A DNA stretch of 64,000 nt, taken from assembly GCA_003598025.1 (NCBI GenBank), contig QZKH01000003.1, positions 170,048 to 234,047 on the forward strand. Reading direction: 5' to 3'. The position numbers were made by a program, and so were the translations under genes. Within the stretch, counting starts at the first letter, position 1. Every line of letters begins with the position of its first letter. Below the pieces are notes generated by a model. It ran no database searches. It worked only from the letters and a program-made list of their open reading frames with translations, and was not told the DNA's origin. This document shows, piece after piece, positions 7,112-33,288 of this stretch. Origin of the DNA: Candidatus Omnitrophota bacterium (lineage in GTDB: Bacteria > Omnitrophota > Gorgyraeia > Gygaellales > Profunditerraquicolaceae).

Positions 7112-7141
7112 CAGTTACCCCTTTTTTATGCTTTTCGAATC

Positions 7142-9694: not shown

Positions 9695-9832
9695 TAACTC
9701 CTTTCATTTGATTTGAGTTAAAGGTTTATACGCTGGCGGCAACAAAACCGTACCTTTCAAGGTGTGAATGTAGTTTGTCCGCTCAGTATTTCGCTCCAAA
9801 GAACCTCGGACTAAAGCCTGAGGAGCCCCATT

Positions 9833-15520: not shown

Positions 15521-15547
15521 TATTCAAAATTCCAAATTGTTACTTCT

Positions 15548-15575
15548 ATTCTATTTTTAAATTTTCTTTTGTCAA
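15548..15575 (-). promoter_or_regulatory. Candidate sigma70-type promoter for the riboswitch-btuB transcript
   Basis: Minus-sense TTGACA-N16-TAGAAT about 30 nt upstream of the aptamer. The -35 overlaps the btuD stop codon. Confidence 0.4.
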
Positions 15576-16354: not shown

Positions 16355-16356
16355 TT

Positions 16357-18139: not shown

Positions 18140-18143
18140 TATA

Positions 18144-18647
18144 TCAGTATTCGATGCCTCTTCTTGCTTTCTTGCCTTTGCTGTAGTAGTGTTTTACTTC
18201 GCGGATTTCGCTTACTAAGTCAGCGGCTTTTATTATTTTGGGATGCGCATAGCGGCCGGTAAGGATGATTTCGCAATCTTTGGGCACGTTGTTAATACAG
18301 CTTAATACATCGGTAATGCGGATTAGCCCCAGGTTTATGGCGACGTTAATTTCATCCAGTATGATCACATCGTAGCACTTTTTATTTACAGCCTTTTTTA
18401 CGGCGTCAATCCCCTTTTTTGTAAAATCTATATCTTTCTGCGATGGCTGCCTGCACACAAAACATCTGCTGCCGAATTGCTCAACCTTGATATTTTTGTG
18501 TTTCTTTAACGCTTTAATCTCGCTGCAGGCCCTGCCTTTAAGAAATTGACAGAAGTAAACTTTTTTCCCTGCTCCGCTGGCACGTAACGCAAGCCCGAGC
18601 GCTGCCGTAGTTTTTCCTTTTCCATTTCCGGTATATACTTGTATCAT
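18144..18647 (-). CDS. btuR: Cob(I)yrinic acid a,c-diamide / corrinoid adenosyltransferase (CobO/BtuR)
   Basis: 167 aa; MIQVYTGNGKGKTTAALGLALRASGAGKKVYFCQFLKG is the classic CobA/BtuR P-loop. Confidence 0.85.
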   Translation of the reverse strand: MIQVYTGNGKGKTTAALGLALRASGAGKKVYFCQFLKGRACSEIKALKKHKNIKVEQFGSRCFVCRQPSQKDIDFTKKGIDAVKKAVNKKCYDVIILDEINVAINLGLIRITDVLSCINNVPKDCEIILTGRYAHPKIIKAADLVSEIREVKHYYSKGKKARRGIEY

Positions 18648-19217: not shown

Positions 19218-19877
19218 TTAGCAGGAGAAACGATCTTCCTTAATCATCCCGTATTTACCTACCAGGGGGACAAATACGCAAGCGCAAACTTCGGTGGACT
19301 TAAGCGCTCCGTAAATTTTCTCAAAAGAAATTAGGGTTTGCCTGAAATTATCCCCAATGGGAATAATGAGCCTTCCGCCTTCTTTAAGTTGTTCACCTAA
19401 AGGCAGCGGAACCCGTGGCGCGGCCGCAGTGATTATTATCCTGTCAAAGGGAGCATTCTCAGGCCACCCTAAAGTCCCGTCATCGATCTTTACTTTAATA
19501 TTATCAATGTTGAGTTTTTTAAATACCTGTGTTGCCCGCTCAGCTAATACACCAATACGCTCAACCGTAAAAACTTCTTTGGCCAGCTGGGAAAGTATAG
19601 CCGCTTGATACCCTGAACCTGTCCCGATTTCCAGGATTTTCTCGTCCCCTGCAAGGTCAAGGCAGCTTGTCATAAGCGCTACCATGTAAGGCTGCGATAT
19701 AGTTTGGTCATTGCCTATAGGCAGCGGCGAATCTGCATATGCGCTGTCTTTAACATCATCGGGCACAAATTCATGCCGCGCCACTTTATAAAAAGCATCG
19801 AGCACCCGCTCATTATTTATCCCGCGGTTTATAAGCTGCTCTTCAACCATCCTGGCCCTTAATTTTTCCCAATCCAT
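19218..19877 (-). CDS. pcm: Protein-L-isoaspartate O-methyltransferase
   Basis: 219 aa; the SQPYMVA and EIGTGSGYQAA motifs. Confidence 0.85.
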   Translation of the reverse strand: MDWEKLRARMVEEQLINRGINNERVLDAFYKVARHEFVPDDVKDSAYADSPLPIGNDQTISQPYMVALMTSCLDLAGDEKILEIGTGSGYQAAILSQLAKEVFTVERIGVLAERATQVFKKLNIDNIKVKIDDGTLGWPENAPFDRIIITAAAPRVPLPLGEQLKEGGRLIIPIGDNFRQTLISFEKIYGALKSTEVCACVFVPLVGKYGMIKEDRFSC

Positions 19878-20539
19878 AACTCTCTCCAGATAAATTTAAT
19901 AAACCTGACCGTGTCAATAAAAGGGTTAATATTGCTTTTTTCTCCCGAATAAACAGTAGTTACCGGTATTGAGCCGATTTTAAAACCTAAACGCGCCGCC
20001 TTTATTATAATCTCCGACTCAGTTTCGTATTTCTTTGTACTAAAAGATATTTTTTCCAACAACCTTTTCTTTATCAGCCTGAAACCGCATTGCGTATCAG
20101 GTATTTTCTGCCTTGCTATCAGCGAAAGAAGCCATGACATAAACCTGTTTGTGGCTAATCTGATAAGAGGCATATTCTTCCTGTTGATCAGCCTGTTGCC
20201 GATGATCAAGTCGTAGTTATGTTCCAAAGCTTTGACAAAATGTGGAATTTCTTCCGGAAGGTGTTGGCCGTCGCCGTCCATGGTTATCACGGCATCGAAA
20301 TTGCCGTTTAGGGCATATTCAAACCCTTTAATCAGCGAAGCGCCTTTCCCCTGGTTTACTTCATTGTGCAAGACAGTTACGCCTGCCTGCATTGCCAGCT
20401 GGTAGGTATTATCGGTTGAGCCGTCATCTATTACTAACACGCTTATCCCGGGATAGGTTATTCTTTTTAATAGTCTGGCAATAACCTTTTCCTCGTTATA
20501 TGTAGGTATGATTACACAAATCCTATAAGCGGTCTTCAT
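19859..20539 (-). CDS. Family 2 glycosyltransferase (polyprenol-phosphate / DPM1-like)
   Basis: 226 aa; ICVIIPTYNEE...VIDDGSTDNT...DGDGQH carries the GT-A DXD motifs. Confidence 0.75.
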   Translation of the reverse strand: MKTAYRICVIIPTYNEEKVIARLLKRITYPGISVLVIDDGSTDNTYQLAMQAGVTVLHNEVNQGKGASLIKGFEYALNGNFDAVITMDGDGQHLPEEIPHFVKALEHNYDLIIGNRLINRKNMPLIRLATNRFMSWLLSLIARQKIPDTQCGFRLIKKRLLEKISFSTKKYETESEIIIKAARLGFKIGSIPVTTVYSGEKSNINPFIDTVRFIKFIWRELWIGKN

Positions 20540-21392
20540 CTTTCCAGAAGTACCTGAACATATACCACTGCTCGGGGTATTTTCGAATAAATTTCTCGAA
20601 TAATGATTTATAAATATTGATTATATTTTTTATATCAACTGCGTTATCGCCGGTTGCGGCATACTCAATTGGTTTCTCGATAGTTAAGGTAAAACTGTCA
20701 TTGGGGTTCCTAACCATAAAACCGGGTATTATTACTGCCCCGGTACGCAGGGAAAGCGCAGCCGGACCTTCGGGTAGGCAAGCCTGTTTATTAAAAAACT
20801 CTACAGGTATGCCTTTTCCTGTAAAATCCCTGTCTCCGACAAGAGCAAGCAGGTTATTGCCCCTTAAGGCATTAAGCGATTGCCTGACTGCTTTTTTAAG
20901 AGGGATAACCCTCATCCCTTTGCTCTCGCGCTGGAAATTAAAAAAATCATTTACTCTTTTATGCTTATGCTCAAGCGCGACCGCATACAAAGGATAGCCC
21001 ATAAGCGCAGTAACTACCCCGCCTAATTCCCAGTTCCCTAAATGCGCCGTCAGGACTATTGCCCCCTTTTTTCTCTTAATTGCCTCGTCAAAATTTTCAA
21101 TATTGATTATTTTTATGTTTTTTTCTATATATTGGCGGTTGAGTTTCGGAAAGCGGAAAAAATCAACAAGGTATTTTGCAAAGTTCCTGAACATTTCTCT
21201 GCGTATCACGGAAATTTCCCTGTCAGTTTTATCCGGAAAGATCACCTTCAAATTCCTGGTGACATTTTTTCTGTCTATATTAGCAAAGATATAATGCACA
21301 TCCGAGACAAATACTGCAAACTTATAAGCGACTTTTAAAGGCAGAAACAGGGCGATGAATTGACCGATGCGGTAAAATATATAATTAAACAT
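20523..21392 (-). CDS. LpxL/HtrB-family lipid A (lysophospholipid) acyltransferase
   Basis: 289 aa; LTAHLGNWELGG (H-x4-E/D) acyltransferase motif and overall Lip_A_acyltrans pattern. Confidence 0.7.
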   Translation of the reverse strand: MFNYIFYRIGQFIALFLPLKVAYKFAVFVSDVHYIFANIDRKNVTRNLKVIFPDKTDREISVIRREMFRNFAKYLVDFFRFPKLNRQYIEKNIKIINIENFDEAIKRKKGAIVLTAHLGNWELGGVVTALMGYPLYAVALEHKHKRVNDFFNFQRESKGMRVIPLKKAVRQSLNALRGNNLLALVGDRDFTGKGIPVEFFNKQACLPEGPAALSLRTGAVIIPGFMVRNPNDSFTLTIEKPIEYAATGDNAVDIKNIINIYKSLFEKFIRKYPEQWYMFRYFWKDEDRL

Positions 21393-22509
21393 TACAAAGG
21401 CTTAATATGTGTCTTGCGATATTCATGCTCGACTCAGGTTTAGATATCTTTTTAGCTGCGTTTGCAAGTTCCTTAAGTTTTTCAGGCGATGCAATCAGCT
21501 CTTCGACTGCAAGGTTTATTCTGTTTGCTTTATCAATCTTAATAGCTGCTTTATGTTCGGTTAAATAAGCTGTGTTGGAAGCCTCTTGCCCGGGGATGGG
21601 ATGAACGATTATCATCGGAATATGCTTGGATAAGGCTTCAGCAGTTGTTATGCCCCCGGGTTTTGTTATTAATACATCTGCAATACTCATCAGTTCGTTT
21701 ATATTGTTTGCGTACCCGAATAAAACGACTTTTTTACGGTATTTGTTAAGTTTTTTCTTTATTGTCCGGTAGAGCTTCTTGTTAGTCCCTGTTACGATAA
21801 TTTCCTGTATATCTTGATTTACATGTTCAAGAGATGATATTATGCTTTTAACAGGTCCGAGGCCCTGGCCTCCGCCCATAATAAGGGCAGTAAATTTATT
21901 GCTCTTAAGCCCGAGTTTGCTAAATACCTGGTCTTTGTTTACAGGCCGGTTGAAATCAGGGTCAAAAGGTATTCCAAAGGGCTTTATTTTTGAATGCGGG
22001 ACTCCTTTTTGCATAAGGCGTATGGATACCTCTTCGGAAGGCGTTATATAGGTGTTGACGTCGTCATAAACCCAATAAGCATGAGGTATATAATCTGTAA
22101 GTACGGCTATAAGAGGTATTGAAGAATGCGTTACCTTTTTATAGTCTGCTACCATGCCGCATGGAAAAGCCTGGGAGCAGACAACCGCATCCGGTTTGAA
22201 GCTGTTAAAAAGCTTTTCCAGCTTAGGCGAATTGAACTTATGTATCGACTCTTTTATCCTGGATATGCTTTTTGCAATCTTTTGGTTGTCGTATAAATAA
22301 CTCCAGATTGCCGGGGTCCTCTTTATTATCGCCATATAAAGGCGGTTAACTACCTTTTCTGATATGGGATTGGTGTAGTTAAAAGCGTTTATATTCAATA
22401 TTTCAGTTTCCGGCTCAAGCCGTTTTATAGACTTTTCTATAGCCTCTGTCGCGCAGCGGTGCCCTGACACCTCGGAGATATACATCAAGATGATTCTTTT
22501 TGCCGGCAT
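21385..22509 (-). CDS. MGDG-synthase/UgtP-like GT28 glycosyltransferase (diacylglycerol glycosyltransferase)
   Basis: 374 aa; N-terminal MGDG_synth-like region and a C-terminal GT28 C-domain (GGGQGLGP...). Confidence 0.65.
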   Translation of the reverse strand: MPAKRIILMYISEVSGHRCATEAIEKSIKRLEPETEILNINAFNYTNPISEKVVNRLYMAIIKRTPAIWSYLYDNQKIAKSISRIKESIHKFNSPKLEKLFNSFKPDAVVCSQAFPCGMVADYKKVTHSSIPLIAVLTDYIPHAYWVYDDVNTYITPSEEVSIRLMQKGVPHSKIKPFGIPFDPDFNRPVNKDQVFSKLGLKSNKFTALIMGGGQGLGPVKSIISSLEHVNQDIQEIIVTGTNKKLYRTIKKKLNKYRKKVVLFGYANNINELMSIADVLITKPGGITTAEALSKHIPMIIVHPIPGQEASNTAYLTEHKAAIKIDKANRINLAVEELIASPEKLKELANAAKKISKPESSMNIARHILSLCNV

Positions 22510-24172: not shown

Positions 24173-26359
24173 TTACTCTGCTGTTGCAATTGGTAACTCA
24201 AGTATGAAACGCGTTCCGACCTTATAAGAAGATTCAAAAGCAATCCTGCCTTTATGAGTGTCGGTTATAATCTTTTTGATAACATACAAGCCAAGCCCTG
24301 TGCCTTTGCGCGATGAAGTTTTTGTAGTAAAAAACGGGGTAAATACCTTCTTAATGTTGTCTTCTTTTACCCCCATGCCGTTATCCTCGATGATCATTTC
24401 AAGGAAATCATCCTTAGGCTTAGCGCTTATAGTCAGTCTTCCCCTATAGTTTGGCTCATTCAGGGCAGCTTTGCGTTCGTTCGTGGCATCATAAGCATTA
24501 TCGATGAAGTTAAAAAATGCTTCCTGAAGCTGTACAAGATTACCTTTTATTTTAGGAGTATCTTTACTGTAGTTACGGATAATGTCAATTTCTGAAAGCT
24601 TGATTTTAAACTGTATCATATCAAGCGTAGCATCTAAAATCTGGTCAATGGTCAGCTCACCAAAATTATCTTCTCCCTTACGGGTATATTTAAGCATGCC
24701 TTTTACAACTTCGCCTCCCTGCATGACGTTGGCCTGGATCCTTTCAAGGGCATGTCCTACGCTTTTTATCATCTCCCGGACTTCCGGTGTGCAGTTAGCC
24801 GTATCTGTTAACTTTATAGTATCAATCGTATCCCCGGCAATAAGGGATAAAGCATAAAACCTGTTGTTTATTTGATGAGAAAGCCCGTCTGCCATGGTTC
24901 CGATTGTCGCCATTTTCTCAGCCTGGGCAACCTGTTCCTGCATCTCTTTTGTTTCCTCGTAGAATTGGGCGTTCTCAATAGCCAAAGCAGCCTGGCTAGC
25001 CAATACCTGGAAAACATTTAAGTCATCATGAGTGTATATTTCGCCGGACATCTTATCTCCAAGCACGACAAAACCGATAAATTTATCCTCAAGGAAGCTG
25101 GGAATGATTACAGTGGCTGTTAAAAGGCGCATATTTTCTTCCAGATGCGCATAGGTAATATCGTTTGTATCAAGCATCTTGCGTTTGATTTCGTCGTATA
25201 TTAATGGCTGCCTCCTGAAAACTATCCAGTTGACGAGCGGATTATCGGAACTTAATTTTGGAATGGGGATGCGGCCCTTATCTCTGCTTACCTGTAGCAT
25301 GTATTCATCGCTTTCCTGGTTATAAAGATAAATGGCGGCGTAAGAGATTTTTACGGTTTTAGTTACTATGTGCGTTATCAGGTCAAGGAGCTTTCTTAAG
25401 TTTCGGATACGGGTCATGCCAACCGAAGCCTGCTTTAATACATCCTGGTATCTTTTCTGCTCTCTTAAAAGCCTTGCTTCGGCTTTTCTTTCCAAATAAA
25501 TGTAGATAAACGGCCCGACTGTTGCCAAGCCTGCCATTAAACCTAATGGCGCAATCCACCAGCGCGTACCTAAATTTGTTATCAGCCATGTCCTGAACCA
25601 GACTACAAGCGCAAAAGGTAAACCAAGGACTATTGTATAAACAGCGATAAATGTTCCGGTCCTGCTGATAGCAACCCGGATATCCATTAGACGGTATTTG
25701 AGAATTGCATATGAGATAATAAGAGGGAAAGTTGTAAATAGTATTAATGGATAAGGTGGGAAATTTATATTAAAAGAAAGCAAAAAAGTGCTACCTCCTC
25801 CAGTAAATCCCATAACTGAGGCCAAAAATATATATTTTATTTGATTTGCTTTAAAAGCGGTTGTTTTTTTATATTCCCTCGATAGTAAATTTAATCCGTA
25901 AAGAACAATAAGAGAAAAATAGATAGCAAATAAATAATATCCAATGCCAGGCACTATGTAGTATTGGAATATTGATTTTGACGTTAAATCTTTTATATAT
26001 AGTGGAGTAAAGTTTAGTAAGAAAATTATCGAACTGAGTATTAAGACAATATTAAAAATAAGTTTAATTCTGCTGAGTTTTTGTAACTCAAGAAATACAA
26101 TTATAAAGCGTAACCATAAAAATGCAACAAGCATGCCAGAGATTTCAACAAACTTAAGAATTATAAAGCTCGCTTGCTTATTATCAGAATTTATGGCTAA
26201 AAAATAAAAAACACTCCAAAACGAAGCATTGATACATAGCATTGCCCAGGCATTATTGACAACACTTTTACGGTTTCTTAAATAAACCAGAATACCAATG
26301 CCAAAAACAGTAAAGAATCCTAATAAAGTTATTGTGTTAAAATAAAGTTTTGCTATCAA
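24173..26359 (-). CDS. Sensor histidine kinase with N-terminal 7TM sensor region, GAF domain, HisKA and HATPase domains
   Basis: 728 aa; about 7 N-terminal transmembrane helices, GAF-like middle domain, H-box DGLSHQINN, N/G boxes (DNGMGV..., GTGLGL). Confidence 0.8.
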   Translation of the reverse strand: MIAKLYFNTITLLGFFTVFGIGILVYLRNRKSVVNNAWAMLCINASFWSVFYFLAINSDNKQASFIILKFVEISGMLVAFLWLRFIIVFLELQKLSRIKLIFNIVLILSSIIFLLNFTPLYIKDLTSKSIFQYYIVPGIGYYLFAIYFSLIVLYGLNLLSREYKKTTAFKANQIKYIFLASVMGFTGGGSTFLLSFNINFPPYPLILFTTFPLIISYAILKYRLMDIRVAISRTGTFIAVYTIVLGLPFALVVWFRTWLITNLGTRWWIAPLGLMAGLATVGPFIYIYLERKAEARLLREQKRYQDVLKQASVGMTRIRNLRKLLDLITHIVTKTVKISYAAIYLYNQESDEYMLQVSRDKGRIPIPKLSSDNPLVNWIVFRRQPLIYDEIKRKMLDTNDITYAHLEENMRLLTATVIIPSFLEDKFIGFVVLGDKMSGEIYTHDDLNVFQVLASQAALAIENAQFYEETKEMQEQVAQAEKMATIGTMADGLSHQINNRFYALSLIAGDTIDTIKLTDTANCTPEVREMIKSVGHALERIQANVMQGGEVVKGMLKYTRKGEDNFGELTIDQILDATLDMIQFKIKLSEIDIIRNYSKDTPKIKGNLVQLQEAFFNFIDNAYDATNERKAALNEPNYRGRLTISAKPKDDFLEMIIEDNGMGVKEDNIKKVFTPFFTTKTSSRKGTGLGLYVIKKIITDTHKGRIAFESSYKVGTRFILELPIATAE

Positions 26360-27027
26360 TTACTATTTCTCCTACAAAATTGAAGAAAAGGTATAATCAT
26401 TGGTACGGTCTTTTTGTAGTGCAAATACTCATCACCAAACTTGATAAAAGACAATTTTTCCTCATAAATAGCTCTAATTATATACAATGGCGTATTAATA
26501 AATATAATTATAAAAAGCGCGTAAAATGCATTGGCAATCAACGATATGCCTATTAACTCAAAAATAATTCCTAAATAAATCGGATGCCTTATAAAACTAT
26601 AGGGACCAGTTTTAACACAAGAGTATTTTATTTCAGATTCATCTTCATTTACTAAATGTATCTTCCAATGTTCCCCTAAACTTTTGACAGACCAATATCT
26701 GATTACCCCTGCTAAAATAAATACTGAGATTCCGAACATACTAACCGCGAAATACTTAATACCGTTAGTGACAAAAAACTCAGCTATTACAACTAAACAT
26801 GTAACTAAGTACATAATTGAAGTAACTACCATTGTCCAGTCACCTTTGTACTTATATTTGTTTGTTTCCTTAGTTGTAAAAAAAGTTTCCCATACTCTCT
26901 CAAACATAATCAATACTGCAAAAATACTAAAAATTATTCCTCCTCTTGCCTCAGGGTAGAATATATTTAAAACTATTAATAGTACTGGAATTAATAAAAG
27001 AGAAAAAGCAATGAAAATAATAATCAT
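26356..27027 (-). CDS. ICMT/PEMT-superfamily membrane methyltransferase
   Basis: 223 aa; polytopic membrane protein with C-terminal ...GPYSFIRHPIYLG...E motif of isoprenylcysteine carboxyl methyltransferase-family enzymes. Very AT-rich gene; its stop overlaps the histidine kinase start by 4 nt. Confidence 0.6.
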   Translation of the reverse strand: MIIIFIAFSLLLIPVLLIVLNIFYPEARGGIIFSIFAVLIMFERVWETFFTTKETNKYKYKGDWTMVVTSIMYLVTCLVVIAEFFVTNGIKYFAVSMFGISVFILAGVIRYWSVKSLGEHWKIHLVNEDESEIKYSCVKTGPYSFIRHPIYLGIIFELIGISLIANAFYALFIIIFINTPLYIIRAIYEEKLSFIKFGDEYLHYKKTVPMIIPFLQFCRRNSN

Positions 27028-27797
27028 AAGTCTTCCAAATATTTAGGCGATCCAATAATCTTTAAAGTATCACGATAATATCTTGTATATAATGGTTTTT
27101 TTGATATTTTTAAGTTTTTTAACAATTTTGATAGTTCTTGGTCACCAAGCTTGAATTCAACAGCTTTTGAATCGCCAAAAACTCCAAAAGTTTCCAATTT
27201 TATTTTTGATACCTTCATATCTTTAAGAGAATATGTTGTGTGGTACTCATATTTAACTTTTTCTTTTAATGGTTTTTTTATTTTGAACTTTAATATCCAC
27301 TCATTGTTAGAGTAAGCATCTACTTCAATAAATTTGTCAGTTTTAGCAAAATTTGCCACCGTTAACTGTTTATAATGAGGATAACCTGTAATTATATTGC
27401 CATGCTCAATTGCCAAATCAGTACTTTGGGCTACCGAAATAGGGATGAATCCGAATTTTTTTGTCACATATTTTATGGGAAAGGATATAAAAGGAATGTT
27501 AAACTTAGTTGCATGGCCAACAATGAGCGAAAAAGTCAATTCAGTAAAGCGGCCGACCGGTGTATCATAAAAATTCAATATTGTAATACACATTAGGCTT
27601 CGTCCGGGTAATAGTACAAGTGGTTTTAGCTTTTTTGTACCAATAATTTCAGCAGCTGTTTTTGATGATATTGTAAATAAGGCATTGATAGCTTCGCACT
27701 TATATTTAATAGGGATATCAATTAGTAAATCTCTAACTTTTACTTTTTTTTCAACATTTATCTTGAACGAATCCAGATCTACTTTTAAATTTTTCAC
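27024..27797 (-). CDS. Hypothetical Lys-rich protein (possibly acetoacetate-decarboxylase-like fold; weak)
   Basis: 257 aa, no transmembrane segment, very AT-rich; 4-nt overlaps with both neighbours. The family call is tentative and from memory only. Confidence 0.3.
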   Translation of the reverse strand: MKNLKVDLDSFKINVEKKVKVRDLLIDIPIKYKCEAINALFTISSKTAAEIIGTKKLKPLVLLPGRSLMCITILNFYDTPVGRFTELTFSLIVGHATKFNIPFISFPIKYVTKKFGFIPISVAQSTDLAIEHGNIITGYPHYKQLTVANFAKTDKFIEVDAYSNNEWILKFKIKKPLKEKVKYEYHTTYSLKDMKVSKIKLETFGVFGDSKAVEFKLGDQELSKLLKNLKISKKPLYTRYYRDTLKIIGSPKYLEDL

Positions 27798-27799
27798 CT

Positions 27800-29023
27800 T
27801 CAGTCTCCTTTTAAATTGTTTTTTAACTTAATCATTAGATCAATCAAACAATCTATCTGTTCTTTTGTATGTGTTGCTTTGACTGTGAGCCTTAATCTGG
27901 CTTTTCCCCAGGGTACTGCTGGCCAGCGCACGCATGGTGCCAAAATTCCGTTTTCAAGTAACTTTTTAGAAAACTCTATTGCTTTTTCTTCTTTTCCTAT
28001 TAAAACCGGGATGATTTGGGTTTCGCTGTTAAGCGTATCAAACCCTGATTTTGTCAGATTAGTTTTAAGATAGCTGACATTTGACCATAGGTTTTCTCTA
28101 AGAGAATGATTATTTTTTGCTTCTTTTACAGCTGCAATCAGGGCAGCAGCGATTGAAGGTGGTATTGGCGCAGAAAAAATATAGGAACGCGCGCTTATTC
28201 TTAAATAATCAATCAGGGCTTTTGTGCCGCAAACAAATCCGCCTACACCGCCAAACGATTTAGTGAAAGTCCCCATTGTGATATCAATATCGTTTTCATC
28301 AAGCCCAAAATGCTCGGCAGTTCCCCTGCCGTTTTTACCCAAAACTCCGGATGCGTGCGCATCATCTACCATAACAATTGAATTATATTTTTTCGCAAGC
28401 TCAACAATTCCCGGCAACGGAGCGATGTCACCGTCCATGCTGAATACACCGTCAGTAACGATCATTTTCCGTATTTTTTTTAATTTCTTAAGTTTTCCTT
28501 CGAGGTCCTTCATGTCCTTATGTTTATATACAACGATTTGGGCATGGCTTAGCCTGCAGCCGTCAATTATACTTGCGTGGTTTAATTCATCGCTTAAGAT
28601 TATTCTTTTCCCCTGGAAAGGAGCTGGTATCAGCCTGCCTGCTATCTTATGAAGGCCGCTTACAGCATCCATTACTGCAGGAATTGTTCCGGTATTTGCC
28701 ATATAACCGGTAGAAAAAGTTATTGCGGATTTGCTATTCTTAAAATCTGCTATTGCCTTTTCAAGCTCTACCTGGATATCGGTATTCCCGGAAACAAGCC
28801 GCGAACCACCGGAGCCAACTCCGTATTTGTCAATTGCTTCCTTTGCTGCCTTTTTTAGAAGCTCGCTATTGGCCAGGCCTAAATAATCATTTGAGCAGAA
28901 AATCAGCACTTTTTTACCGTTAGCGACAACTTCTAATGATGTTGGTGAGCCGGATATTAAACTGATATCAGGGTAAAGCCCAAAATCACGGATATTTTTA
29001 AGTATGTTTTCTATATTCTCCAT
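27800..29023 (-). CDS. PLP-dependent alpha-oxoamine synthase (BioF/KBL/serine-palmitoyltransferase/CqsA family)
   Basis: 407 aa; GGSRLVSGN, DDAHASGVLGKNGRG and the PLP-lysine motif TFTKSFGGVGGF. Confidence 0.8.
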   Translation of the reverse strand: MENIENILKNIRDFGLYPDISLISGSPTSLEVVANGKKVLIFCSNDYLGLANSELLKKAAKEAIDKYGVGSGGSRLVSGNTDIQVELEKAIADFKNSKSAITFSTGYMANTGTIPAVMDAVSGLHKIAGRLIPAPFQGKRIILSDELNHASIIDGCRLSHAQIVVYKHKDMKDLEGKLKKLKKIRKMIVTDGVFSMDGDIAPLPGIVELAKKYNSIVMVDDAHASGVLGKNGRGTAEHFGLDENDIDITMGTFTKSFGGVGGFVCGTKALIDYLRISARSYIFSAPIPPSIAAALIAAVKEAKNNHSLRENLWSNVSYLKTNLTKSGFDTLNSETQIIPVLIGKEEKAIEFSKKLLENGILAPCVRWPAVPWGKARLRLTVKATHTKEQIDCLIDLMIKLKNNLKGD

Positions 29024-29030
29024 TTATAAA

Positions 29031-30032
29031 TTATATTACCGGCGCTTCCGGCAGCCAGGTCTCAAAGCCGTATTTAGCAGCTATATTGGCTATTTCTTCA
29101 AGGTTGTCAGGGTTGATATTATCACCTAAAGAATAATTATTGAATCTTGATTCTTTTGCCAGCAAAAGCGTTTCGGCAAAAGGCGCGTTCACGACATTTC
29201 TAGGCAGGCATTTATTAATAAAAATATCTGCCTCGAAAGGCAGCTTAATCAATCCCGTCCTTATAATAGTGATGTCATTTCTTAATTTTTTGTTATTAAC
29301 CATGCAAAACGGCGCAGAGGCATCAAAGATTATACAGCCGGGTTTTGGAATATCAAGATTAATGATTGTGCTTAATGGCGCGTTGCCGATAGCAACGATT
29401 ACATCAGACGCAGAGGTTAATTCGGAAAGGTTATCTTCTATATTTACGGTAAGCCCGCCATATTGGGAAGCAAGTTCTGTTTTCAGCCTGATGACAGATT
29501 CAATCTCGGTATCGTTAAGCGTTATGTCAGAAGTAAAATCAATTATTTTTTTTGTAAAAAGCTTACCTACTGCCGTACCTGCCCCGACTACAGAAAACTT
29601 CATTTTAGCAAGGTCAATCCCCCTGCTCTTGACAGTCCTGTAAACAGATTCAACAATCGACCATGCGAGCAAAGTATTGCCCGTTGTCATCGGCATGCGT
29701 ACTTTTTTTAACAAAGTAACTGCGCTGGTAGACTCGACAAGGTTGTATCTCTCCAGGCCGATCATTTCTATATCTAAGTTCTTAGAAATATCTTCATCGG
29801 AAAGGATAGAATTTAAAATCAAGGCTTCTCCCTGAAGGAGAAGGTCTTTAGGCGGTGTGGACGGGATAACCAGGTAGCTGAGGATATCCTGTGAACCAAA
29901 AATTATCCTTTTGGGCTTGAGAATTTTGTAAATCGGTGTCTTTTTTAATGCAGGGTTGAATAAATCCCAAAACCAGCCTTTTTTAAGGTATTTTATTGTC
30001 CGGGGATGGATAATAAACGCAAATGACCTCAT
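29031..30032 (-). CDS. Acyl-ACP reductase (AAR)-family NAD(P)-dependent reductase, paralog 1
   Basis: 333 aa. Aligns by eye along its whole length with cyanobacterial AAR: FIIHPRT vs GLIGHLTS; TTGNTLLAWSIV...SVVGAGTAVGK vs TTGNTHTAYVIC...AVVGATGDIGS; CIIFDASAP vs CVLIDGGYP; C-terminal APFAETLLLAKE...YSLG...AKYGFE vs ACFAEAMLLEFE...FSWG...VRHGFQ. Confidence 0.65.
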   Translation of the reverse strand: MRSFAFIIHPRTIKYLKKGWFWDLFNPALKKTPIYKILKPKRIIFGSQDILSYLVIPSTPPKDLLLQGEALILNSILSDEDISKNLDIEMIGLERYNLVESTSAVTLLKKVRMPMTTGNTLLAWSIVESVYRTVKSRGIDLAKMKFSVVGAGTAVGKLFTKKIIDFTSDITLNDTEIESVIRLKTELASQYGGLTVNIEDNLSELTSASDVIVAIGNAPLSTIINLDIPKPGCIIFDASAPFCMVNNKKLRNDITIIRTGLIKLPFEADIFINKCLPRNVVNAPFAETLLLAKESRFNNYSLGDNINPDNLEEIANIAAKYGFETWLPEAPVI

Positions 30033-30033
30033 T

Positions 30034-31122
30034 TCATCTCCAAAGCAATATCCTGCTTTTAGATTTTTTCTTTATGTTTGCCTTAATCCTGCTTATCTCA
30101 ATGTCAGATATCGGTTTCTCCTTGCTTGTGAGGCTGTCAATTTCAAATCCGTGTTTTGCCCCAAGCCTCAAAATTTCTTTGACCTTAAAAGCATCAAAAT
30201 CTTTTCCCAGGGAATAATCCTCGAATTTCTTCTCCAGCGCCAAAATCATCGGTTCGGCCATGCATGGATAACACAATCCTTCGGGAAGGCCAAAATCAAA
30301 ATTGAATTTTACGTCTCCGGGAGGCTTAACTGTTACTCCGTCAATAACCAGCACGTCGTTGCGAATGCTCGGAAGGATGCGCCGCGGGTAAGAAGCATCA
30401 AAGATAAGGCTGCCCGGCTCAACCTTGCTTATATCAAATTCTGCAGGTATGCGGTTAGTCGCAACAATTATAATTTTAGTTTTATTTAAAATGGAGTTTA
30501 TGTCAAATTTACTATGTATTTTTGCTCTTTTTTCTTTGGGGATGCCGGCTAGTGCAATATTTAATTTATCTACATTGTGCGCGCTGACATAAGTCCCGCG
30601 CACGAAATGGGAAAGTATATCAAGGCAGTACTTTCCGACGCTTGAAGTCCCTCCCAGGATCAGGATGTAAGTATCATCTAGGGGGATATCCATTAAATCA
30701 GCGCCTCTTAATATTGCTTCGGGTATAGTAGAAAGAGTATAATTGGAGCCGGTTGTCATCGGGCAAGGAATGATCTTTTTTAAATCCGCTCCTTTATTGC
30801 CGCTGAATGCCGCATAAGCAGTCAACCCTATCAATTTAGGCGAAATCGAACTTGCAAATTTAAGTGTGTTAATGACTGCCTTCATCACTTTTGTAGGGCT
30901 TAAGGAAACCATCTGTTCCATAAGCAGCGGGCACATTACGAGTGCGCCTTTTGCTGTCCTGCCTAAATCTGAATATAACCCTCTGATTTCGGAAGCCTTA
31001 AAAGGCTGCATCCATTCCAACACCTTTTTTACTAATGGCCGAGGTTTATTTTTCATCCCCGGCTCATATTTATATAACAGCTCTTCGTTAGTCGGATGGA
31101 TTATGAGGGTGTAGTCATACAT
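30034..31122 (-). CDS. AAR-family reductase, paralog 2 (start revised to the internal ATG at 31120-31122; the ORF-track start at 31236 adds a spurious W/R-rich 38 aa)
   Basis: From MYDYTLIIHPTNEEL... onward it parallels paralog 1 and AAR (TTGSNYTL...LILGGTSSVGK; LIFDASYP; PCMAEPMILALEKKFEDYSLGKD...AKHGFE). The revised start gives an 8-nt ATGTATGA overlap with the upstream SRPBCC stop. Confidence 0.6.
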   Translation of the reverse strand: MYDYTLIIHPTNEELLYKYEPGMKNKPRPLVKKVLEWMQPFKASEIRGLYSDLGRTAKGALVMCPLLMEQMVSLSPTKVMKAVINTLKFASSISPKLIGLTAYAAFSGNKGADLKKIIPCPMTTGSNYTLSTIPEAILRGADLMDIPLDDTYILILGGTSSVGKYCLDILSHFVRGTYVSAHNVDKLNIALAGIPKEKRAKIHSKFDINSILNKTKIIIVATNRIPAEFDISKVEPGSLIFDASYPRRILPSIRNDVLVIDGVTVKPPGDVKFNFDFGLPEGLCYPCMAEPMILALEKKFEDYSLGKDFDAFKVKEILRLGAKHGFEIDSLTSKEKPISDIEISRIKANIKKKSKSRILLWR

Positions 31123-31561
31123 TTGAGTTCTCCGCCTTATTCTTAATAGCCAGCACCATACCGGTGAGCCCCCGCTCAGCTTTTTTCTTAAGGACTGAAC
31201 CAACATACTCTTCCAGGATGGGTATTCCCCAGTCAAAATCAGCTTTTAAGGTCAGTTTGCTGCCGTCATGCCATTCCTTTACGTGCCAAATCCCCTGATA
31301 GCTTTGGTAGTAACCCTCGACCATATTAAATTTAATTATTCCTGCAGGTTCATCTATATTGTCTTCTTCCTTCCAGTTTACCGGAGCGCCTTCAATCTCA
31401 GTTTCCCATGAAGTAATAAATTTGGTATCGGATAGAGATTTAATGACCTTAAGGTTTTTAACGTCACGCATAAAAGAAGGGTATGATTCCATATCCCTAA
31501 GTATTTCAAATACTTTTTCTTTCGGTTTCTTTATTACGCAAGATGCTTCAATAGTTACCAT
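31115..31561 (-). CDS. SRPBCC-superfamily protein (polyketide cyclase/dehydrase / lipid-binding START-like)
   Basis: 148 aa; MVTIEASCVIKKPKEKVFEILRDMESYPSFMRDVK...W is the usual SRPBCC N-terminal pattern. Confidence 0.5.
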   Translation of the reverse strand: MVTIEASCVIKKPKEKVFEILRDMESYPSFMRDVKNLKVIKSLSDTKFITSWETEIEGAPVNWKEEDNIDEPAGIIKFNMVEGYYQSYQGIWHVKEWHDGSKLTLKADFDWGIPILEEYVGSVLKKKAERGLTGMVLAIKNKAENSNV

Positions 31562-31566
31562 ATTTT

Positions 31567-31812
31567 TTATATAAGACTTTTTTCTGCGCGTTCTTCCTCT
31601 GTTTTGCGCCTGTCTTTTTTTCCGCTTTCATGATATTCCAGTTTATCCTTAATCCACTTTTCTATGTACTTTTTGTGGAACCGCCAGTCAGCGCCGATTT
31701 TGAACGCCGGTATCCTGCCGTCTCGAGCATAACGATGCACAGTCAGTGGATGCAAGTTCAAATAATCTGCAACTTCTTTTGCTGTAAGGATTTCCTTATC
31801 TTTTTTTGCCAT
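31567..31812 (-). CDS. Excisionase/MerR-like helix-turn-helix DNA-binding protein
   Basis: 81 aa; LTAKEVADYLNLHPLTVHRYARDGRIPAFKIGADWRF matches the excisionase-family HTH consensus; basic C-terminal tail. Confidence 0.6.
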   Translation of the reverse strand: MAKKDKEILTAKEVADYLNLHPLTVHRYARDGRIPAFKIGADWRFHKKYIEKWIKDKLEYHESGKKDRRKTEEERAEKSLI

Positions 31813-31848
31813 ATTACCACCTCTTTTAGCATATTTTATGTAACTATA

Positions 31849-31877
31849 TGTATACAGGCAAAATCTAAAGTTGTCAA
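31849..31877 (-). promoter_or_regulatory. Near-consensus sigma70-type promoter upstream of the HTH gene
   Basis: Minus-sense TTGACA-N17-TATACA about 36 nt upstream of the ATG, with an AAAAGAGGTGG Shine-Dalgarno. Confidence 0.45.
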
Positions 31878-31895: not shown

Positions 31896-32575
31896 GGACC
31901 GTTTCCTTCCAACCCTCTATCCCGCTAGGTGTTATAAAGGAAGTGTCCTGCTTTCTTTAGCCTTTATTCGGTGAATTTATCTAAGCAAATCAAGCCTTCT
32001 AAAGGATTTGTTTTACTATGATAGAAATGATAGCTGCTCCATAGATAATCATTGGGGCTAACAACGATCCCTGCCCTTACAGGATTATTATGGATGTATT
32101 CAATGCAGGAAAGTATATAATCGTAGCCAGTAATGACGTTACTTTTAAATCTGCCTTGCCAAACATGTCCCGTATAGCCGTATTTTTCACGGAATTTAAA
32201 GCTGTAGGAAAGTTCAATTGCATGCATTATTTTTGAAATGTTTATATTGCAAGAGGGCTCTATAATTAGATGCGGATGCGTGTCCATCAAAACAAGCGAA
32301 TATACCTTAAACCCAAATCTTTCTTTAAATTTGGATAACGTTTTTAGGAAAATTATTTTATCTTCATCTGTACGCAAAACATATTGACGGTTATTTCCCC
32401 TAATACAAATGTGGTATATTGCTGATGTAAAATATATGCGCTTATGTTGTGTCATATTGCCTCCTTCCACATTAGTAGACGAAGGAAACATGATATTCTA
32501 ACTGAATAAGAATGCTTTAGGGGGACACTTCCTTTGTAACACCTAGCGGGATAGAGGGTTGGAAGGAAACGGTCC
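31896..32575 (-). mobile_element. REPtron: RAYT gene flanked by 53-bp inverted REP sequences
   Basis: 31896-31948 (ggaccgtttccttccaaccctctatcccgctaggtgttataaaggaagtgtcc) and 32523-32575 are reverse complements with 1 mismatch and flank the Y1 transposase gene. Confidence 0.7.
31964..32491 (-). CDS. REP-associated tyrosine transposase (RAYT; IS200/IS605-like Y1 HUH transposase)
   Basis: 175 aa (true start possibly M13); HUH motif THPHLII, catalytic Tyr region WSSYHFY, N-terminal YHICIRGNNRQ. Matches the TnpA_REP pattern. Confidence 0.75.
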   Translation of the reverse strand: MFPSSTNVEGGNMTQHKRIYFTSAIYHICIRGNNRQYVLRTDEDKIIFLKTLSKFKERFGFKVYSLVLMDTHPHLIIEPSCNINISKIMHAIELSYSFKFREKYGYTGHVWQGRFKSNVITGYDYILSCIEYIHNNPVRAGIVVSPNDYLWSSYHFYHSKTNPLEGLICLDKFTE

Positions 32576-33288
32576 TATTTGAGGAGTTTAAGCAGGCAAA
32601 GCGGGTATTCGCCTTCTGTAGCATCGAAAGTTTCAGCTTTTTGACGGCTGCATTCAGCCCAATCTCCGCTTTCATCAATCATAAAGTAAGCATCTTTAAC
32701 TATTTTTAAGGGCTTGATAAGCTCTTCTACAAGTTTTGAATCATATATCCTGGCATATGGCCGTATAATCTTAGCTTTACCAAAAGGGATCGTTAATATA
32801 ATTGTGCCCTGGTTTTTTAGTATCCTGACCATTTCAGCCAGAGCCTTCTTATCAGCCTGCAGGTCTTCTTTCTCTCCGTGCCTTCCAGAAATACCGATAT
32901 GCTCAAGAGTAGAGATTGCCGTTATTGCATCAAAAAAATTGTCCTGGAAACTGGTTTTTATCACGCTTTCTTTAACAAAATTAAAATTCTTGAAACTTAT
33001 CTTATTTGTTATCGCATACTCCCTTATATCCAGTCCGTAAGTTTGATATCCAAAACCCGCCAGTAAAAGCGGGAAAAAGCTGCCGGCGCAGCCTACATCA
33101 AGAATTTTAGCAGGGGTCGAAGGAAGATTTTCAGTGGCAAAGCTGTATTCTATATACCTATCGGTAGGCCTTAAAGGCTGTTTGGCAAAATATTCAGGGA
33201 AGATTTTCTGTATTACTGCAATCCCGGACTTACTTATAACTTCATAAGCCTTTTCTTTTATTGTCTTTTTTTCTTTTGTTTTTGACAT
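32575..33288 (-). CDS. Class I SAM-dependent methyltransferase
   Basis: 237 aa; ILDVGCAGSFF (motif I) and downstream motifs. Its stop codon abuts the right REP. Confidence 0.65.
   Translation of the reverse strand: MSKTKEKKTIKEKAYEVISKSGIAVIQKIFPEYFAKQPLRPTDRYIEYSFATENLPSTPAKILDVGCAGSFFPLLLAGFGYQTYGLDIREYAITNKISFKNFNFVKESVIKTSFQDNFFDAITAISTLEHIGISGRHGEKEDLQADKKALAEMVRILKNQGTIILTIPFGKAKIIRPYARIYDSKLVEELIKPLKIVKDAYFMIDESGDWAECSRQKAETFDATEGEYPLCLLKLLK

Follow-up and report, generated by a model that had tools for sequence, protein, structure and literature searches.

We found that the region is composed of two modules behind one conserved promoter, within a 64-kb stretch of DNA analysed as a whole (hereafter, the window). 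Module A (HTH, SRPBCC and AAR1, with or without AAR2) is the older one, and it is both Omnitrophota-wide and Omnitrophota-specific. The second module contains the genes of an α-oxoamine synthase (AOS), an acetoacetate-decarboxylase-fold (ADC-fold) protein and an ICMT-type methyltransferase, followed by a histidine kinase gene that is a mosaic, with a break in base composition at the same place. As judged from sequence comparisons, the 7TM sensor portion of this kinase is co-inherited with the ADC/ICMT cassette. The two-module architecture and the enzyme–sensor coupling, taken jointly, are very probably correct. More tentatively, the sequences may point to a horizontally exchanged small-molecule signal synthase with a matching sensor, a reading that we hold to be possible, if short of probable.

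Table 1. Features of the region, in the direction of transcription
Feature	Position	Strand	Basis
Promoter	31849..31877	-	TTGACA (31877-31872), 17-nt spacer, TATACA (31854-31849); read from sequence
Candidate operator (inferred)	31838..31869	-	two ATAGTTnTnT-like direct repeats about 21 nt apart
HTH_17/excisionase-type DNA-binding protein, 81 aa	31567..31812	-	Pfam PF12728, 1.2e-15
SRPBCC/START-fold ligand-binding protein, 148 aa	31115..31561	-	Pfam Polyketide_cyc, 2.6e-15
AAR/PigE-N-fold protein 1 (AAR1), 362 aa	30034..31122	-	ATG at 31122; family profile
AAR-fold protein 2 (AAR2), 333 aa	29031..30032	-	degenerate paralogue; alignments
PLP-dependent AOS, 407 aa	27800..29023	-	Pfam Aminotran_1_2, 1.2e-67
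ADC-fold protein, 257 aa	27024..27797	-	AF2 model, Foldseek
Integral-membrane ICMT/PEMT-type SAM methyltransferase, 223 aa	26356..27027	-	Pfam ICMT 7.2e-15, PEMT 5.3e-11
Kinase, HisKA_7TM sensor portion, about residues 1-215	25715..26359	-	Pfam PF16927
Same kinase, GAF + HATPase cytoplasmic portion, resident	24173..25714	-	identity to Omnitrophota orthologues
Stand-alone receiver domain, 120 aa	23694..24056	-	orthologues after kinase in L003, L022; Pfam Response_reg in L003
GAF/HD-GYP-type protein, 388 aa	22512..23678	-	L003 orthologue matches HD_5/HD

Gene packing and promoter

All seven co-directional, packed ORFs of the initial annotation, from HTH to ICMT, were confirmed on the minus strand at its coordinates, with successive junctions of +5, -8, +1, +7, +2 and -4 nt. 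HMM searches agreed with its family calls (HTH_17, SRPBCC, two AAR/PigE-N homologues, AOS and ICMT/PEMT), and the gene neighbourhood proved to be conserved in relatives. Tight packing is the rule in the window, where the spacing is at most 10 nt at 32 of the 62 junctions, and thus it does not define a unit by itself. The unit had been thought to end at 26356. The array runs past this point: the ICMT gene overlaps by 4 nt with the 7TM-GAF histidine kinase gene (24173-26359), and this omitted kinase is the most consistent partner of AOS, ADC and ICMT. The packed co-directional run goes on as far as 19218 and takes in the receiver gene, the HD-GYP gene and four envelope genes, with no gap larger than 116 nt.

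The near-consensus TTGACA-N17-TATACA promoter described previously is present. A consensus promoter scan did not list this site, as the last T is missing from its -10 hexamer. In eight Omnitrophota loci, TTGACA followed by TATA(T/C)N is nevertheless kept in front of the HTH gene, while the remaining intergenic DNA is divergent; the spacer is 17 nt where counted (the window and L001) and about 20 nt in L007. In an alignment of the eight upstream regions, an ATAGTTnTnT-like direct repeat, clearest in L009 and L010, overlaps the promoter spacer and the start region and is a possible operator. The HTH_17 protein is a probable local regulator, and its orthologues (60–79% identity) lie upstream of the SRPBCC gene in L001, L006, L007, L009, L010, L021 and L023.

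The Omnitrophota-wide module

The SRPBCC gene adjoins the AAR1 gene in 16 of the 17 loci of our genome scan, and we regard SRPBCC as an obligate partner of AAR1. All SRPBCC–AAR1 loci in the scan are labelled Omnitrophota, except for one contig binned as Planctomycetia, and the 8-nt overlap of the two genes is found in the window, L001, L004/L005 and L023. In the PDB, the SRPBCC protein matches TTHA0849 (1.8e-10). The AAR1 family profile matches PigE (4ppm, 8.5e-54) and AAR (6jzq, 2.5e-40) far better than GluTR (2.6e-6). AAR1 keeps the acyl-accepting catalytic Cys (PCMAEP), which is present in 72 of 74 homologues in a motif census. Its dinucleotide loop is GGTSSVG, not GATGxIG, and the Arg after β2 is replaced by His. 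The AAR1 clade as a whole lacks the canonical loop, which occurs only in the most distant of the 74 homologues (P0059 and P0063–P0080). The two of these that have a named source belong to Anaerolineales.

In the AAR2 of the window, Pro replaces the catalytic Cys, the loop is GAGTAVG and the N-terminal segment is partly missing. This protein is only 32–37% identical to the AAR2 proteins of relatives whose AAR1 proteins are 43–68% identical. Neither AAR1 nor this AAR2 looks, from its motifs, like a standard thioester reductase, and the two thioester reductases of the initial annotation are not borne out. AAR1 probably still passes through an acyl-Cys intermediate, but standard NAD(P)H-dependent reduction by this protein is unlikely. 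By analogy with ADO as the partner of AAR, SRPBCC is likely to be the ligand-receiving partner of AAR1.

These features bear on the earlier proposal of a single seven-gene pathway, in which AAR reductases would produce aldehydes or alcohols and, together with AOS, SRPBCC and ICMT, lead to one long-chain amino-ketone or methylated lipid. The one conserved promoter and the tight packing of all seven genes speak for it, as do the three Omnitrophota lineages (the window, L023 and L003) that carry both modules side by side. AAR-fold and PLP enzymes are also known as a pair from PigE (PMC8341465), and the same logic is seen as two genes in L020. However, most loci have SRPBCC–AAR1 without AOS (among the 17 loci, AOS with ADC is limited to L003/L011, which are one contig), and loci of the ultra-small candidate phyla radiation (CPR) bacteria have AOS–ADC–ICMT without any AAR. 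In L023, a Fic gene, and no AAR2, lies between AAR1 and AOS. Moreover, AOS enzymes take thioesters, not aldehydes, and the motif losses of AAR1 (the NAD(P)H loop) and AAR2 (the catalytic Cys) also count against such a pathway. We consider it very improbable: the shared promoter stands, and the single pathway gives way to two separately inherited modules.

The cassette and the mosaic kinase

AOS passes the NCBIfam bioF model TIGR00858 (443.6 vs a cut-off of 426.45), just misses that of KBL (422 vs 460) and is far below the cut-off of all three SPT HMMs, scoring 392 bits with the CFB-type SPT. It is not a member of the CqsA family, because it scores only 181 bits against PRK07179 (cut-off, 428). 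The best PDB match is ThAOS (4e-91), the SPT structure 3a2b matches at 1.2e-88, and BioFs of known structure come much lower in the ranking than ThAOS, SPT and KBL. The 'lipid-type' label given previously is not supported as it stands, since the broad-specificity ThAOS and the KBL/SPT group are the nearest matches of AOS. Public annotations name it 8-amino-7-oxononanoate synthase.

The bioF score and this annotation, together with the near miss of the KBL cut-off and the tight spacing that is normal in this window, would suit a chance assembly of unrelated housekeeping genes in a compact genome, with AOS serving as BioF (biotin) or KBL (threonine/glycine). This is very doubtful. The initial annotation had named a BioF identity as what would undermine its proposal. 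No bioA, bioB or bioD was found within the window, and AOS shares only 31% identity with the BioF from a true bioB-bioF-bioDA locus (L047). Judged from its relatives and its context, AOS is not a contextual BioF. Its closest relatives come from Omnitrophota and CPR, and the ADC–ICMT–7TM adjacency recurs across phyla.

The ADC-fold protein, previously left as hypothetical, gave an AF2 model (pLDDT, 79.5; pTM, 0.81) whose top 22 Foldseek PDB matches all belong to the ADC superfamily, and 37 of 50 members of its family match Pfam ADC. It lacks the Schiff-base Lys, with His141 in place of the Lys of the GFPKK motif. The ICMT-type protein matches 4a2n (1.3e-6) in the PDB, and the LmtA and PEMT models weakly. 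The ADC and ICMT genes share a 4-nt overlap in the window, L025–L027, L051 and L052.

The order AOS–ADC–ICMT–7TM kinase is found in the Omnitrophota loci L023, L024 and L028, and also in L052 (WWE3, a CPR lineage), where another AOS and another 7TM kinase follow. In L051, the AOS gene is separated from ADC–ICMT–7TM kinase, and Berkelbacteria (L025 and L026), also CPR, have ADC–ICMT–7TM kinase. Among 14 distinct, readable contexts of AOS relatives with at least 45% identity, a HisKA_7TM protein is encoded zero to four genes downstream in 11 (the window, L003, L023, L029, L030, L031, L034, L039, L051, L052 and L053). The 7TM gene is lacking nearby or distant in L050, L054 and Berkelbacteria, where AOS is 14 genes off. 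The window has a single HisKA_7TM protein. Such kinases are numerous on some Omnitrophota contigs (L003, L020 and L022), so that within this phylum an adjacency could more easily arise by chance. For CPR, 51 cases of a CqsA homologue adjacent to a sensor kinase are on record (PMC7567580), and the AOS–kinase adjacency there has been known since 2020.

The 7TM part of the kinase shares 54, 47, 44 and 41% identity with the cassette-linked sensors of L023, L051, L052 and L025, respectively, vs 27–33% with those of cassette-less L001, L007 and L008. The cytoplasmic part behaves in the opposite way: it is 66–70% identical to the same cassette-less Omnitrophota kinases (66–78% with L023 included) and 17–24% identical to CPR-type kinases. 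The crossover lies at residues ~200–225. The GC3 values of ADC (0.24), ICMT (0.26) and the 7TM part (0.25) differ from that of 55 other ORFs (0.413±0.039), the membrane-protein controls (0.39–0.43) and the cytoplasmic part of the kinase (0.45), and GC falls to 0.27–0.33 across 25600-27800. In Omnitrophota lacking the cassette, the cargo does not predict the 7TM type; L008 and L017 both have AAR2 and a B12-radical SAM gene, yet their 7TM parts are only 23% identical. The 7TM domain showed no match to named sensor families, including CqsS. Both findings weigh against the signal-and-sensor reading, as do the AOS scores for CqsA and bioF, the missing Lys of the ADC-fold protein and the three AOS relatives with no 7TM gene close by.

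Possible roles: signal or envelope lipid

From these sequences, we infer the chemistry and the signalling role as follows. The exchanged cassette would consist of AOS, the Lys-less ADC-fold protein, the ICMT-type methyltransferase and the HisKA_7TM portion of the kinase. AOS would condense an amino acid and an acyl-thioester into an α-aminoketone. This product may be handled or modified by the ADC-fold protein, whose translation would be coupled to that of the membrane methyltransferase, probably with a methylation step, and the hydrophobic product would be sensed by the matching 7TM domain. The kinase would then act through the stand-alone receiver on the GAF/HD-GYP protein, probably via c-di-GMP turnover. 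The GAF/HD-GYP gene is kept after the receiver gene in L003 and L022, and its product is the probable output of the pathway.

Alternatively, the region might be an envelope-lipid remodelling island, with AOS as the source of a sphingoid or aminolipid base and a membrane lipid as the methyl acceptor of the ICMT/PEMT-type enzyme, as for PEMT and the lipid A methyltransferase LmtA; the 7TM kinase would read the membrane state and not a diffusible signal. The weak LmtA/PEMT matches and the AOS scores near SPT (392 bits; 3a2b) favour this, and the envelope enzymes encoded just downstream (an MGDG-synthase-like GT, an LpxL-like acyltransferase and a GT2) also fit a membrane-remodelling role. The cargo of relatives at the same spot is PlsC, an NAD_binding_4 reductase or B12-radical SAM, and the SRPBCC–AAR1 pair of L004 comes after lpxD-lpxC/fabZ-lpxA-lpxI. 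In L034, an acyl-AMP ligase and an epimerase-type reductase precede AOS, and they resemble the Caulobacter ceramide genes. On the other hand, the SPT HMM scores are far under cut-off, the cluster lacks an ACP, a ceramide synthase and a ketoreductase, and the cassette is also found in CPR bacteria, which are not known to synthesise lipids de novo. The co-inheritance of sensor domain and enzymes, even with an in-gene crossover, is typical of ligand–receptor pairs. An envelope-lipid island is rather unlikely.

The signal-synthase-and-sensor reading corresponds to a secondary idea of the initial annotation, a CAI-1-like signal, which is the best fit to the evidence. The proposed synthase–sensor logic is similar to that of cqsA-cqsS and lqsA-lqsS, and the co-variation of synthesis genes with a sensor domain is like that of the agr and comQXP systems.

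Gene layout and promoter

The window derives from a Candidatus Omnitrophota MAG, and its AAR1 and AOS proteins are 100% matches to NCBI/JGI entries of a 567-kb contig; an exact-sequence search with the AOS gave no record. All seven minus-strand open reading frames of the initial annotation were recovered at their positions, with junctions of +5, -8, +1, +7, +2 and -4 nt. They encode an HTH protein, an SRPBCC protein, two paralogues of the AAR/PigE-N fold (AAR1 and AAR2), a PLP-dependent alpha-oxoamine synthase (AOS), an ADC-fold protein and an ICMT-type methyltransferase. In the following, we call HTH-SRPBCC-AAR1, with or without AAR2, module A, and AOS, the ADC-fold protein and the ICMT-type methyltransferase module B.

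Positions and assignments of the features discussed (window numbering unless another locus is named)
Feature	Position	Strand	Assignment and basis
Seven-gene run, HTH to ICMT, with promoter	26356-31877	-	
HTH			HTH_17/excisionase type
SRPBCC			Polyketide_cyc; PDB TTHA0849
AAR1, AAR2			AAR/PigE-N family; profile matches PigE 4ppm 8.5e-54 and AAR 6jzq 2.5e-40 versus GluTR 2.6e-6 and shikimate DH 2.3e-4
AOS			Apparently active alpha-oxoamine synthase
ADC-fold protein (formerly hypothetical)			ADC fold without the catalytic Lys; AF2 model and Foldseek
ICMT			Pfam-level ICMT/PEMT membrane methyltransferase; PDB 4a2n 1.3e-6
Promoter	31877-31849	-	TTGACA-N17-TATACA
Direct repeat	31838-31869	-	ATAGTTnTnT
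7TM-GAF histidine kinase	24173-26359	-	
Envelope genes	19218-22509	-	MGDG-synthase-like glycosyltransferase, LpxL-like lipid A acyltransferase, GT2, PCMT
Transposase	31964-32491		RAYT/IS200-like Y1
Class-I methyltransferase	32575-33288	-	
Insertion-like segment	31964-33288	-	Transposase and class-I methyltransferase
Cobalamin riboswitch	15377-15538	-	RF00174, 97 bits
BtuR and B12-type ABC uptake cluster	15572-18647		
Diphthami_syn_2-like gene	14597-15274		
L004/L005/L014 (divergent Omnitrophota)	3044-9113		lpxD-lpxC/fabZ-lpxA-lpxI, then SRPBCC-AAR1, then coaB/coaC; also in L013, L015 and L016
L020	7902-10456		AAR1 orthologue (38% identity), overlapping class-III aminotransferase, then 7TM kinase
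L052 (WWE3)	8048-11195		AOS-ADC-ICMT-7TM, then second AOS (51% identity), formyltransferase, second HisKA_7TM kinase

The near-consensus promoter proposed upstream of the HTH gene is present, and it is conserved in relatives. An alignment of the 160 nt upstream of HTH, taken from the window and from seven related loci, shows TTGACA and a TATA(T/C)N hexamer to be conserved within DNA that otherwise is not; where counted, the spacer measures 17 nt, and in the Omnitrophota locus L007 it is about 20 nt. Because the hexamers persist amid divergent flanking DNA, this promoter is better supported than could be known from the window sequence alone. The promoter is overlapped by a conserved direct repeat, with copies spaced about 21 nt, in the window as well as upstream of L001, L006, L007, L009, L010, L021 and L023; this repeat is a possible operator for the HTH_17 protein.

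Tight packing, previously taken as a sign of a single transcription unit, is indeed present but is the norm here, since 32 of the 62 window junctions are of 10 nt or less. Nor does the packed run end at the ICMT gene, as had been assumed: ICMT overlaps the gene of a 7TM-GAF histidine kinase by 4 nt, and the run continues through the kinase, a receiver, a GAF/HD-GYP protein and envelope genes down to 19218. Between HTH and the kinase, a scan for minus-strand terminators gave no convincing candidate. The envelope genes are closely packed after the HD-GYP gene and may share its transcription unit. At the other end, the transposase and class-I methyltransferase genes lie between a lipoyl-domain gene and HTH; this segment looks like an insertion, as the lipoyl-domain gene is directly followed by HTH in L001 and L006. 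Elsewhere in the window, a cobalamin riboswitch is located beside the BtuR and B12-type ABC uptake cluster and, on the minus strand, upstream of the Diphthami_syn_2-like gene.

Module B and the mosaic sensor kinase

We investigated the family membership of the AOS. It carries the PLP Lys and the His/Asp motifs (TFTKS and DDAHA). It narrowly passes the equivalog cut-off of the BioF model TIGR00858 (443.6 versus 426.45 bits), but scores higher with the BioF/Kbl subfamily model TIGR01825 (449.3 bits), whose cut-off it does not reach. It misses the cut-offs for KBL (glycine C-acetyltransferase, PRK06939; 422.3 versus 460 bits), serine palmitoyltransferase (SPT; NF047600/599/603; 392.5, 335.7 and 279.6 versus 640, 500 and 670 bits) and CqsA/LqsA (PRK07179; 181.1 versus 428 bits). 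The best solved structure is ThAOS of Thermus (4e-91), an enzyme of broad specificity that accepts many amino acids and acyl-CoAs (PMC10230504). Sphingobacterium SPT and KBL come next, the solved BioFs lie well below, and the PDB match to CqsA is at 1.4e-22. The nearest relatives are found in Omnitrophota and CPR (Parcubacteria 70%, WWE3 55%, Berkelbacteria 53%). The AOS thus resembles ThAOS and the BioF/KBL/SPT group in structure match and motifs, but differs from this group in being encoded next to a sensor kinase instead of biotin, threonine or sphingolipid genes. This genomic context disfavours a housekeeping BioF or KBL, for which the passed BioF model would speak. Among the findings that would overturn its proposal, the initial annotation had named an AOS robustly inside the BioF clade in a genome with bioA, bioD and bioB. 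No biotin context appears in the window, where tblastn queries with BioB and BioD/A of the true bioB-bioF-bioDA locus (L047) match nothing, or in the related AOS contexts, where bio genes occur in 0 of 14; the locus L047 is only 31% identical. The name "BioF" in CPR and Omnitrophota genomes is an annotation trap, and the enzyme is probably not one of biotin synthesis.

The ADC-fold protein had been left as hypothetical. Its AF2 model (pLDDT 79.5, pTM 0.81) has the ADC superfamily in all of its top 22 Foldseek PDB matches (E 2e-9 to 1e-7, TM 0.5-0.68). Pfam ADC (PF06314) matches 37 of 50 relatives, at best with 1.3e-22, and gives no direct match to the window protein itself. A PDB profile search with the family alignment A3 returned no ADC entry, and one with the alignment A6 returned a marginal ADC match (E 1.3). 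In a weak HMM alignment to 3c8w, together with the conserved GYP motif, the Schiff-base Lys (K115, GFPKK) corresponds to His141 in the window protein, and the position is occupied by His, Thr, Leu or Arg in the roughly 30 members closest to it. The Glu of GxYxE is retained. Accordingly, this protein shares the beta-cone fold and the GxYxE Glu with the ADC superfamily (ADC, Sbi00515, MppR and Swit_4259), but differs from the solved members in the replaced Schiff-base Lys and in a sequence identity of only 7-12%. With 293 of 1.84 billion representatives, this family is a rare one. The methyltransferase exceeds the gathering thresholds of both ICMT (PF04140; 55.6 versus 24 bits) and PEMT (PF04191; 43.3 versus 25 bits), and six predicted hydrophobic segments mark it as a polytopic membrane protein; it stays below the protein-S-isoprenylcysteine O-methyltransferase equivalog NF040696 (57.2 versus 160 bits).

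In Berkelbacteria, WWE3, Omnitrophota and the unclassified bacterium of L051, the ADC-like and ICMT genes form a pair that overlaps by 4 nt and immediately precedes a HisKA_7TM gene. A HisKA_7TM protein is encoded 0-4 genes downstream of the AOS in 11 of the 14 distinct contexts sampled with at least 45% identity, so that the adjacent cognate membrane sensor kinase of CqsA/LqsA systems has a counterpart here; this adjacency is to be read with the caveat of a limited sampling of contexts, and some Omnitrophota contigs carry many HisKA_7TM kinases. The 64-kb window encodes one HisKA_7TM protein only. As judged from these gene neighbourhoods, the co-inherited unit is the ADC-fold protein, ICMT and the 7TM sensor, usually with AOS; we refer to module B plus the HisKA_7TM sensor part as the cassette. 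In WWE3, the second AOS and kinase of L052 look like a tandem second system. A contig labelled as a Pacearchaeota archaeon (L053) carries sigma-70 and OMP beta-barrel genes beside AOS and a 7TM kinase, and is probably a bacterial contig misplaced in an archaeal MAG.

We then divided the kinase where its 7TM region ends and made separate comparisons for the two parts.

Separate comparison of the two parts of the kinase with related kinases
Locus	Source and gene content	7TM	Cytoplasmic
L023	Omnitrophota, with cassette	54%	78%
L051	Unclassified, with cassette	47%	24%
L052	WWE3, with cassette	44%	17%
L025	Berkelbacteria, ADC-ICMT	41%	24%
L001/L007/L008	Omnitrophota, without cassette	33/28/27%	70/68/66%

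A sliding-window comparison places the crossover at kinase residues 200-225 or thereabouts. The base composition changes as well: GC3 is 0.24 in the ADC-like gene, 0.26 in ICMT and 0.25 in the 7TM part, versus 0.45 in the kinase core and 0.413+-0.039 in 55 other ORFs. We rejected the idea that this dip is a membrane-protein artefact, as GC3 is affected and two unrelated membrane proteins in the window have values of 0.39 and 0.43. In every Omnitrophota orthologue checked (L001, L007, L008, L013, L003 and L023), GC3 of the 7TM part is much lower than that of the cytoplasmic part (for example, 0.31 versus 0.51 and 0.25 versus 0.45). This recurrent drop points to repeated replacement of the sensor part by sequence from low-GC donors. 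An NCBIfam search with the isolated 7TM domains found neither CqsS nor any named sensor family. As expected of a pherotype locus, the variable block consists of the synthesis genes and the sensor domain only, the kinase core is conserved, and the GC3 break falls in the same place.

Module A and the variable slot

The earlier assignment of AAR1 and AAR2 to the AAR family holds, as the profile search places both with AAR and PigE-N and fails to make them unrelated enzymes of the shikimate dehydrogenase or GluTR type. Neither reaches the cut-off of the long-chain acyl-ACP reductase equivalog TIGR04058 (AAR1 37.9 and AAR2 67.7 versus 449.7 bits). AAR1 keeps the acyl-enzyme Cys (C294 in S. elongatus), its PCMAEP aligning with aCFAE/gCMAE, and this Cys is retained in 72 of the 74 homologues. 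The dinucleotide loop of AAR1 is GGTSSVG, not the canonical GATGxIG. Across the Omnitrophota AAR1 clade, the loop ranges from GATSSVG to GL-NPLS and is canonical in no member; GATGxIG is confined to the homologues furthest removed, P0059 and P0063-P0080, of which the two with a source name are from Anaerolineales. In the window AAR2, Pro replaces the catalytic Cys, the loop GAGTAVG is off-register and the N-terminus is shortened, unlike its orthologues in L008 and L017, which keep every feature. The reported lack of ADO was borne out, with no ferritin-like or ADO match among the cluster genes or their neighbours.

For the N-domain of PigE, which has a conserved Cys, a thioester reductase function is backed by experiment, and product channelling has been described for AAR, GluTR and PigE (PMC8341465), which the adjacency of AAR1 and SRPBCC recalls. 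Like cyanobacterial AAR with its ADO and the N-terminal reductase of PigE, AAR1 has the fold, the family membership, the catalytic Cys and a dedicated partner encoded next to it. It differs in that the scores are far below the equivalog cut-offs and the partner is SRPBCC in place of ADO, as well as in the non-canonical loop of the whole clade and the missing catalytic Cys of the window AAR2. In module A, an acyl-thioester is probably processed by way of an acyl-Cys intermediate, and something hydrophobic is passed to SRPBCC. Standard NAD(P)H reduction appears doubtful from these motifs, although the loss of the canonical loop is not proof of lost cofactor binding. The label "AAR-like reductase" is another annotation trap: proteins in which the cofactor loop or the Cys is missing should not be taken as aldehyde-forming. 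As far as we have checked, the apparent erosion of the cofactor loop in the SRPBCC-linked AAR clade is new. In the 505-aa protein P0028, encoded on a 2-kb Logan contig, an SRPBCC domain and AAR1 form one chain. This may reflect a frameshift over the customary 8-nt overlap; if the fusion is natural, it would speak for a physical association of the two partners.

Scanning genomes with AAR1 gave 17 loci; one lies on a contig assigned to a Planctomycetia bin, and the others are labelled Omnitrophota. Of these 17, 16 have the SRPBCC-AAR1 pair, with the 8-nt overlap in the window, L001, L004/L005 and L023; HTH occurs in about 7, and AAR2 in 3 plus one paralogue. AOS together with the ADC-like gene was found on a single contig among these loci. 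The neighbourhood of the seven genes is conserved in relatives and falls into two modules, not one. A single seven-gene biosynthetic pathway, as first proposed, is disfavoured by this separate inheritance and by the motif losses in AAR1 and AAR2.

Between AAR1 and the downstream 7TM kinase lies a variable slot, whose cargo differs among relatives. It may hold AAR2 with a B12-radical SAM enzyme; a radical SAM enzyme, AAR2 and an NAD_binding_4 reductase; PlsC, DUF362 and a reductase; a class-III aminotransferase; coaB/coaC; or toxin-antitoxin, Fic and PDDEXK genes. The aminotransferase follows the logic of PigE, and its arrangement in L020 is the PigE reductase-plus-transaminase architecture in two separate genes. 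AbiE toxin-antitoxin, Fic, PDDEXK and AAA genes are gathered in the slots of L001, L003, L006, L007 and L023, indicating that the slot acts as an insertion hot spot. The locus as a defence island was rejected, PADLOC giving a generic HTH match only (mad1, 1e-9). Pantetheine-pathway neighbours (coaB/coaC) recur beside SRPBCC-AAR1 in divergent Omnitrophota; the adjacency to lipB/lpd and coaBC was treated as clade-specific synteny and dropped as functional evidence. Among the loci lacking the cassette, the type of cargo does not track the type of 7TM domain, and the 7TM domains of L008 and L017 are 23% identical. A role of the locus in envelope-lipid remodelling is plausible: relatives carry lipid-type cargo, L004 has lpx genes as neighbours, and envelope genes follow downstream of the window kinase.

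Candidate signalling function and known systems

In the favoured, though still uncertain, reading of the sequence comparisons, the locus would combine the logic of cqsA-cqsS with a co-variation of synthesis genes and sensor domain like that of agr and comQXP. AOS would make an alpha-aminoketone, the ADC-fold/ICMT pair would tailor this product at the membrane, and the matching 7TM domain would read it and pass the signal via the receiver to the HD-GYP protein. A wider scenario, possible but on balance unlikely, is that the Omnitrophota and CPR/Patescibacteria, two unrelated lineages of ultra-small and probably host-dependent bacteria, exchange a self-contained communication cassette, which is joined in frame to kinases already present and yields pherotype-like signal/receptor variants. 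In this scenario, the signal would be a new class of methylated aminoketone made by an undescribed ADC-fold/ICMT chemistry, and the AAR-fold enzyme of the SRPBCC-AAR1 pair would have exchanged its reductase function for acyl transfer or a role as acyl carrier.

The Omnitrophota and CPR comprise abundant, uncultivated bacteria thought to depend on other cells, and this locus is a compact, testable candidate for how they sense partners or kin. The three cassette enzymes can be expressed in E. coli, which opens the candidate to testing. The mosaic kinase would be a natural domain swap with mapped boundaries, linking the HisKA_7TM sensor, for which the literature checked names no ligand, to a defined set of enzymes.

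In CPR, 51 adjacencies of a CqsA homologue and a sensor kinase were found in silico and read as possible AHK quorum sensing, in a study that mentions neither Omnitrophota nor a methyltransferase or 7TM domain (Bernard et al. 2020, PMC7567580). Nor does that study describe the four-part cassette, its components with ADC fold and of ICMT type, the mosaic kinase or the break in composition. Our literature searches found no paper combining ADC, ICMT and a histidine kinase, and nothing specific tying Omnitrophota to quorum sensing or sphingolipids. Thus, the AOS-kinase adjacency in CPR was already known; the four-part cassette, the subfamily of ADC-fold proteins apparently lacking the Lys, and the putative in-gene sensor swap with its composition break are new as far as we have checked.

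As in CqsA/CqsS of Vibrio and LqsA/LqsS of Legionella, a PLP enzyme of the AOS superfamily adjoins a polytopic-membrane sensor histidine kinase, and the expected product would be a hydrophobic aminoketone or hydroxyketone. Unlike CqsA/CqsS, the AOS lies outside the CqsA family and the HisKA_7TM sensor has no CqsS match. Genes for an ADC-fold protein lacking the Lys and an ICMT-type methyltransferase stand between synthase and sensor, which is the case in neither system, and the output is a receiver and an HD-GYP protein instead of LuxU/LuxO or LqsR. In agrBDCA of Staphylococcus and comQXPA of Bacillus, the signals are modified peptides, and the hypervariable segment comprises only the signal-making genes and the membrane sensor part, with the cytoplasmic kinase part conserved. 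The present locus differs from these in its PLP- and SAM-dependent enzymes, with no peptide precursor evident at the locus, but shares with them a variable block that ends within the kinase, after the sensor.
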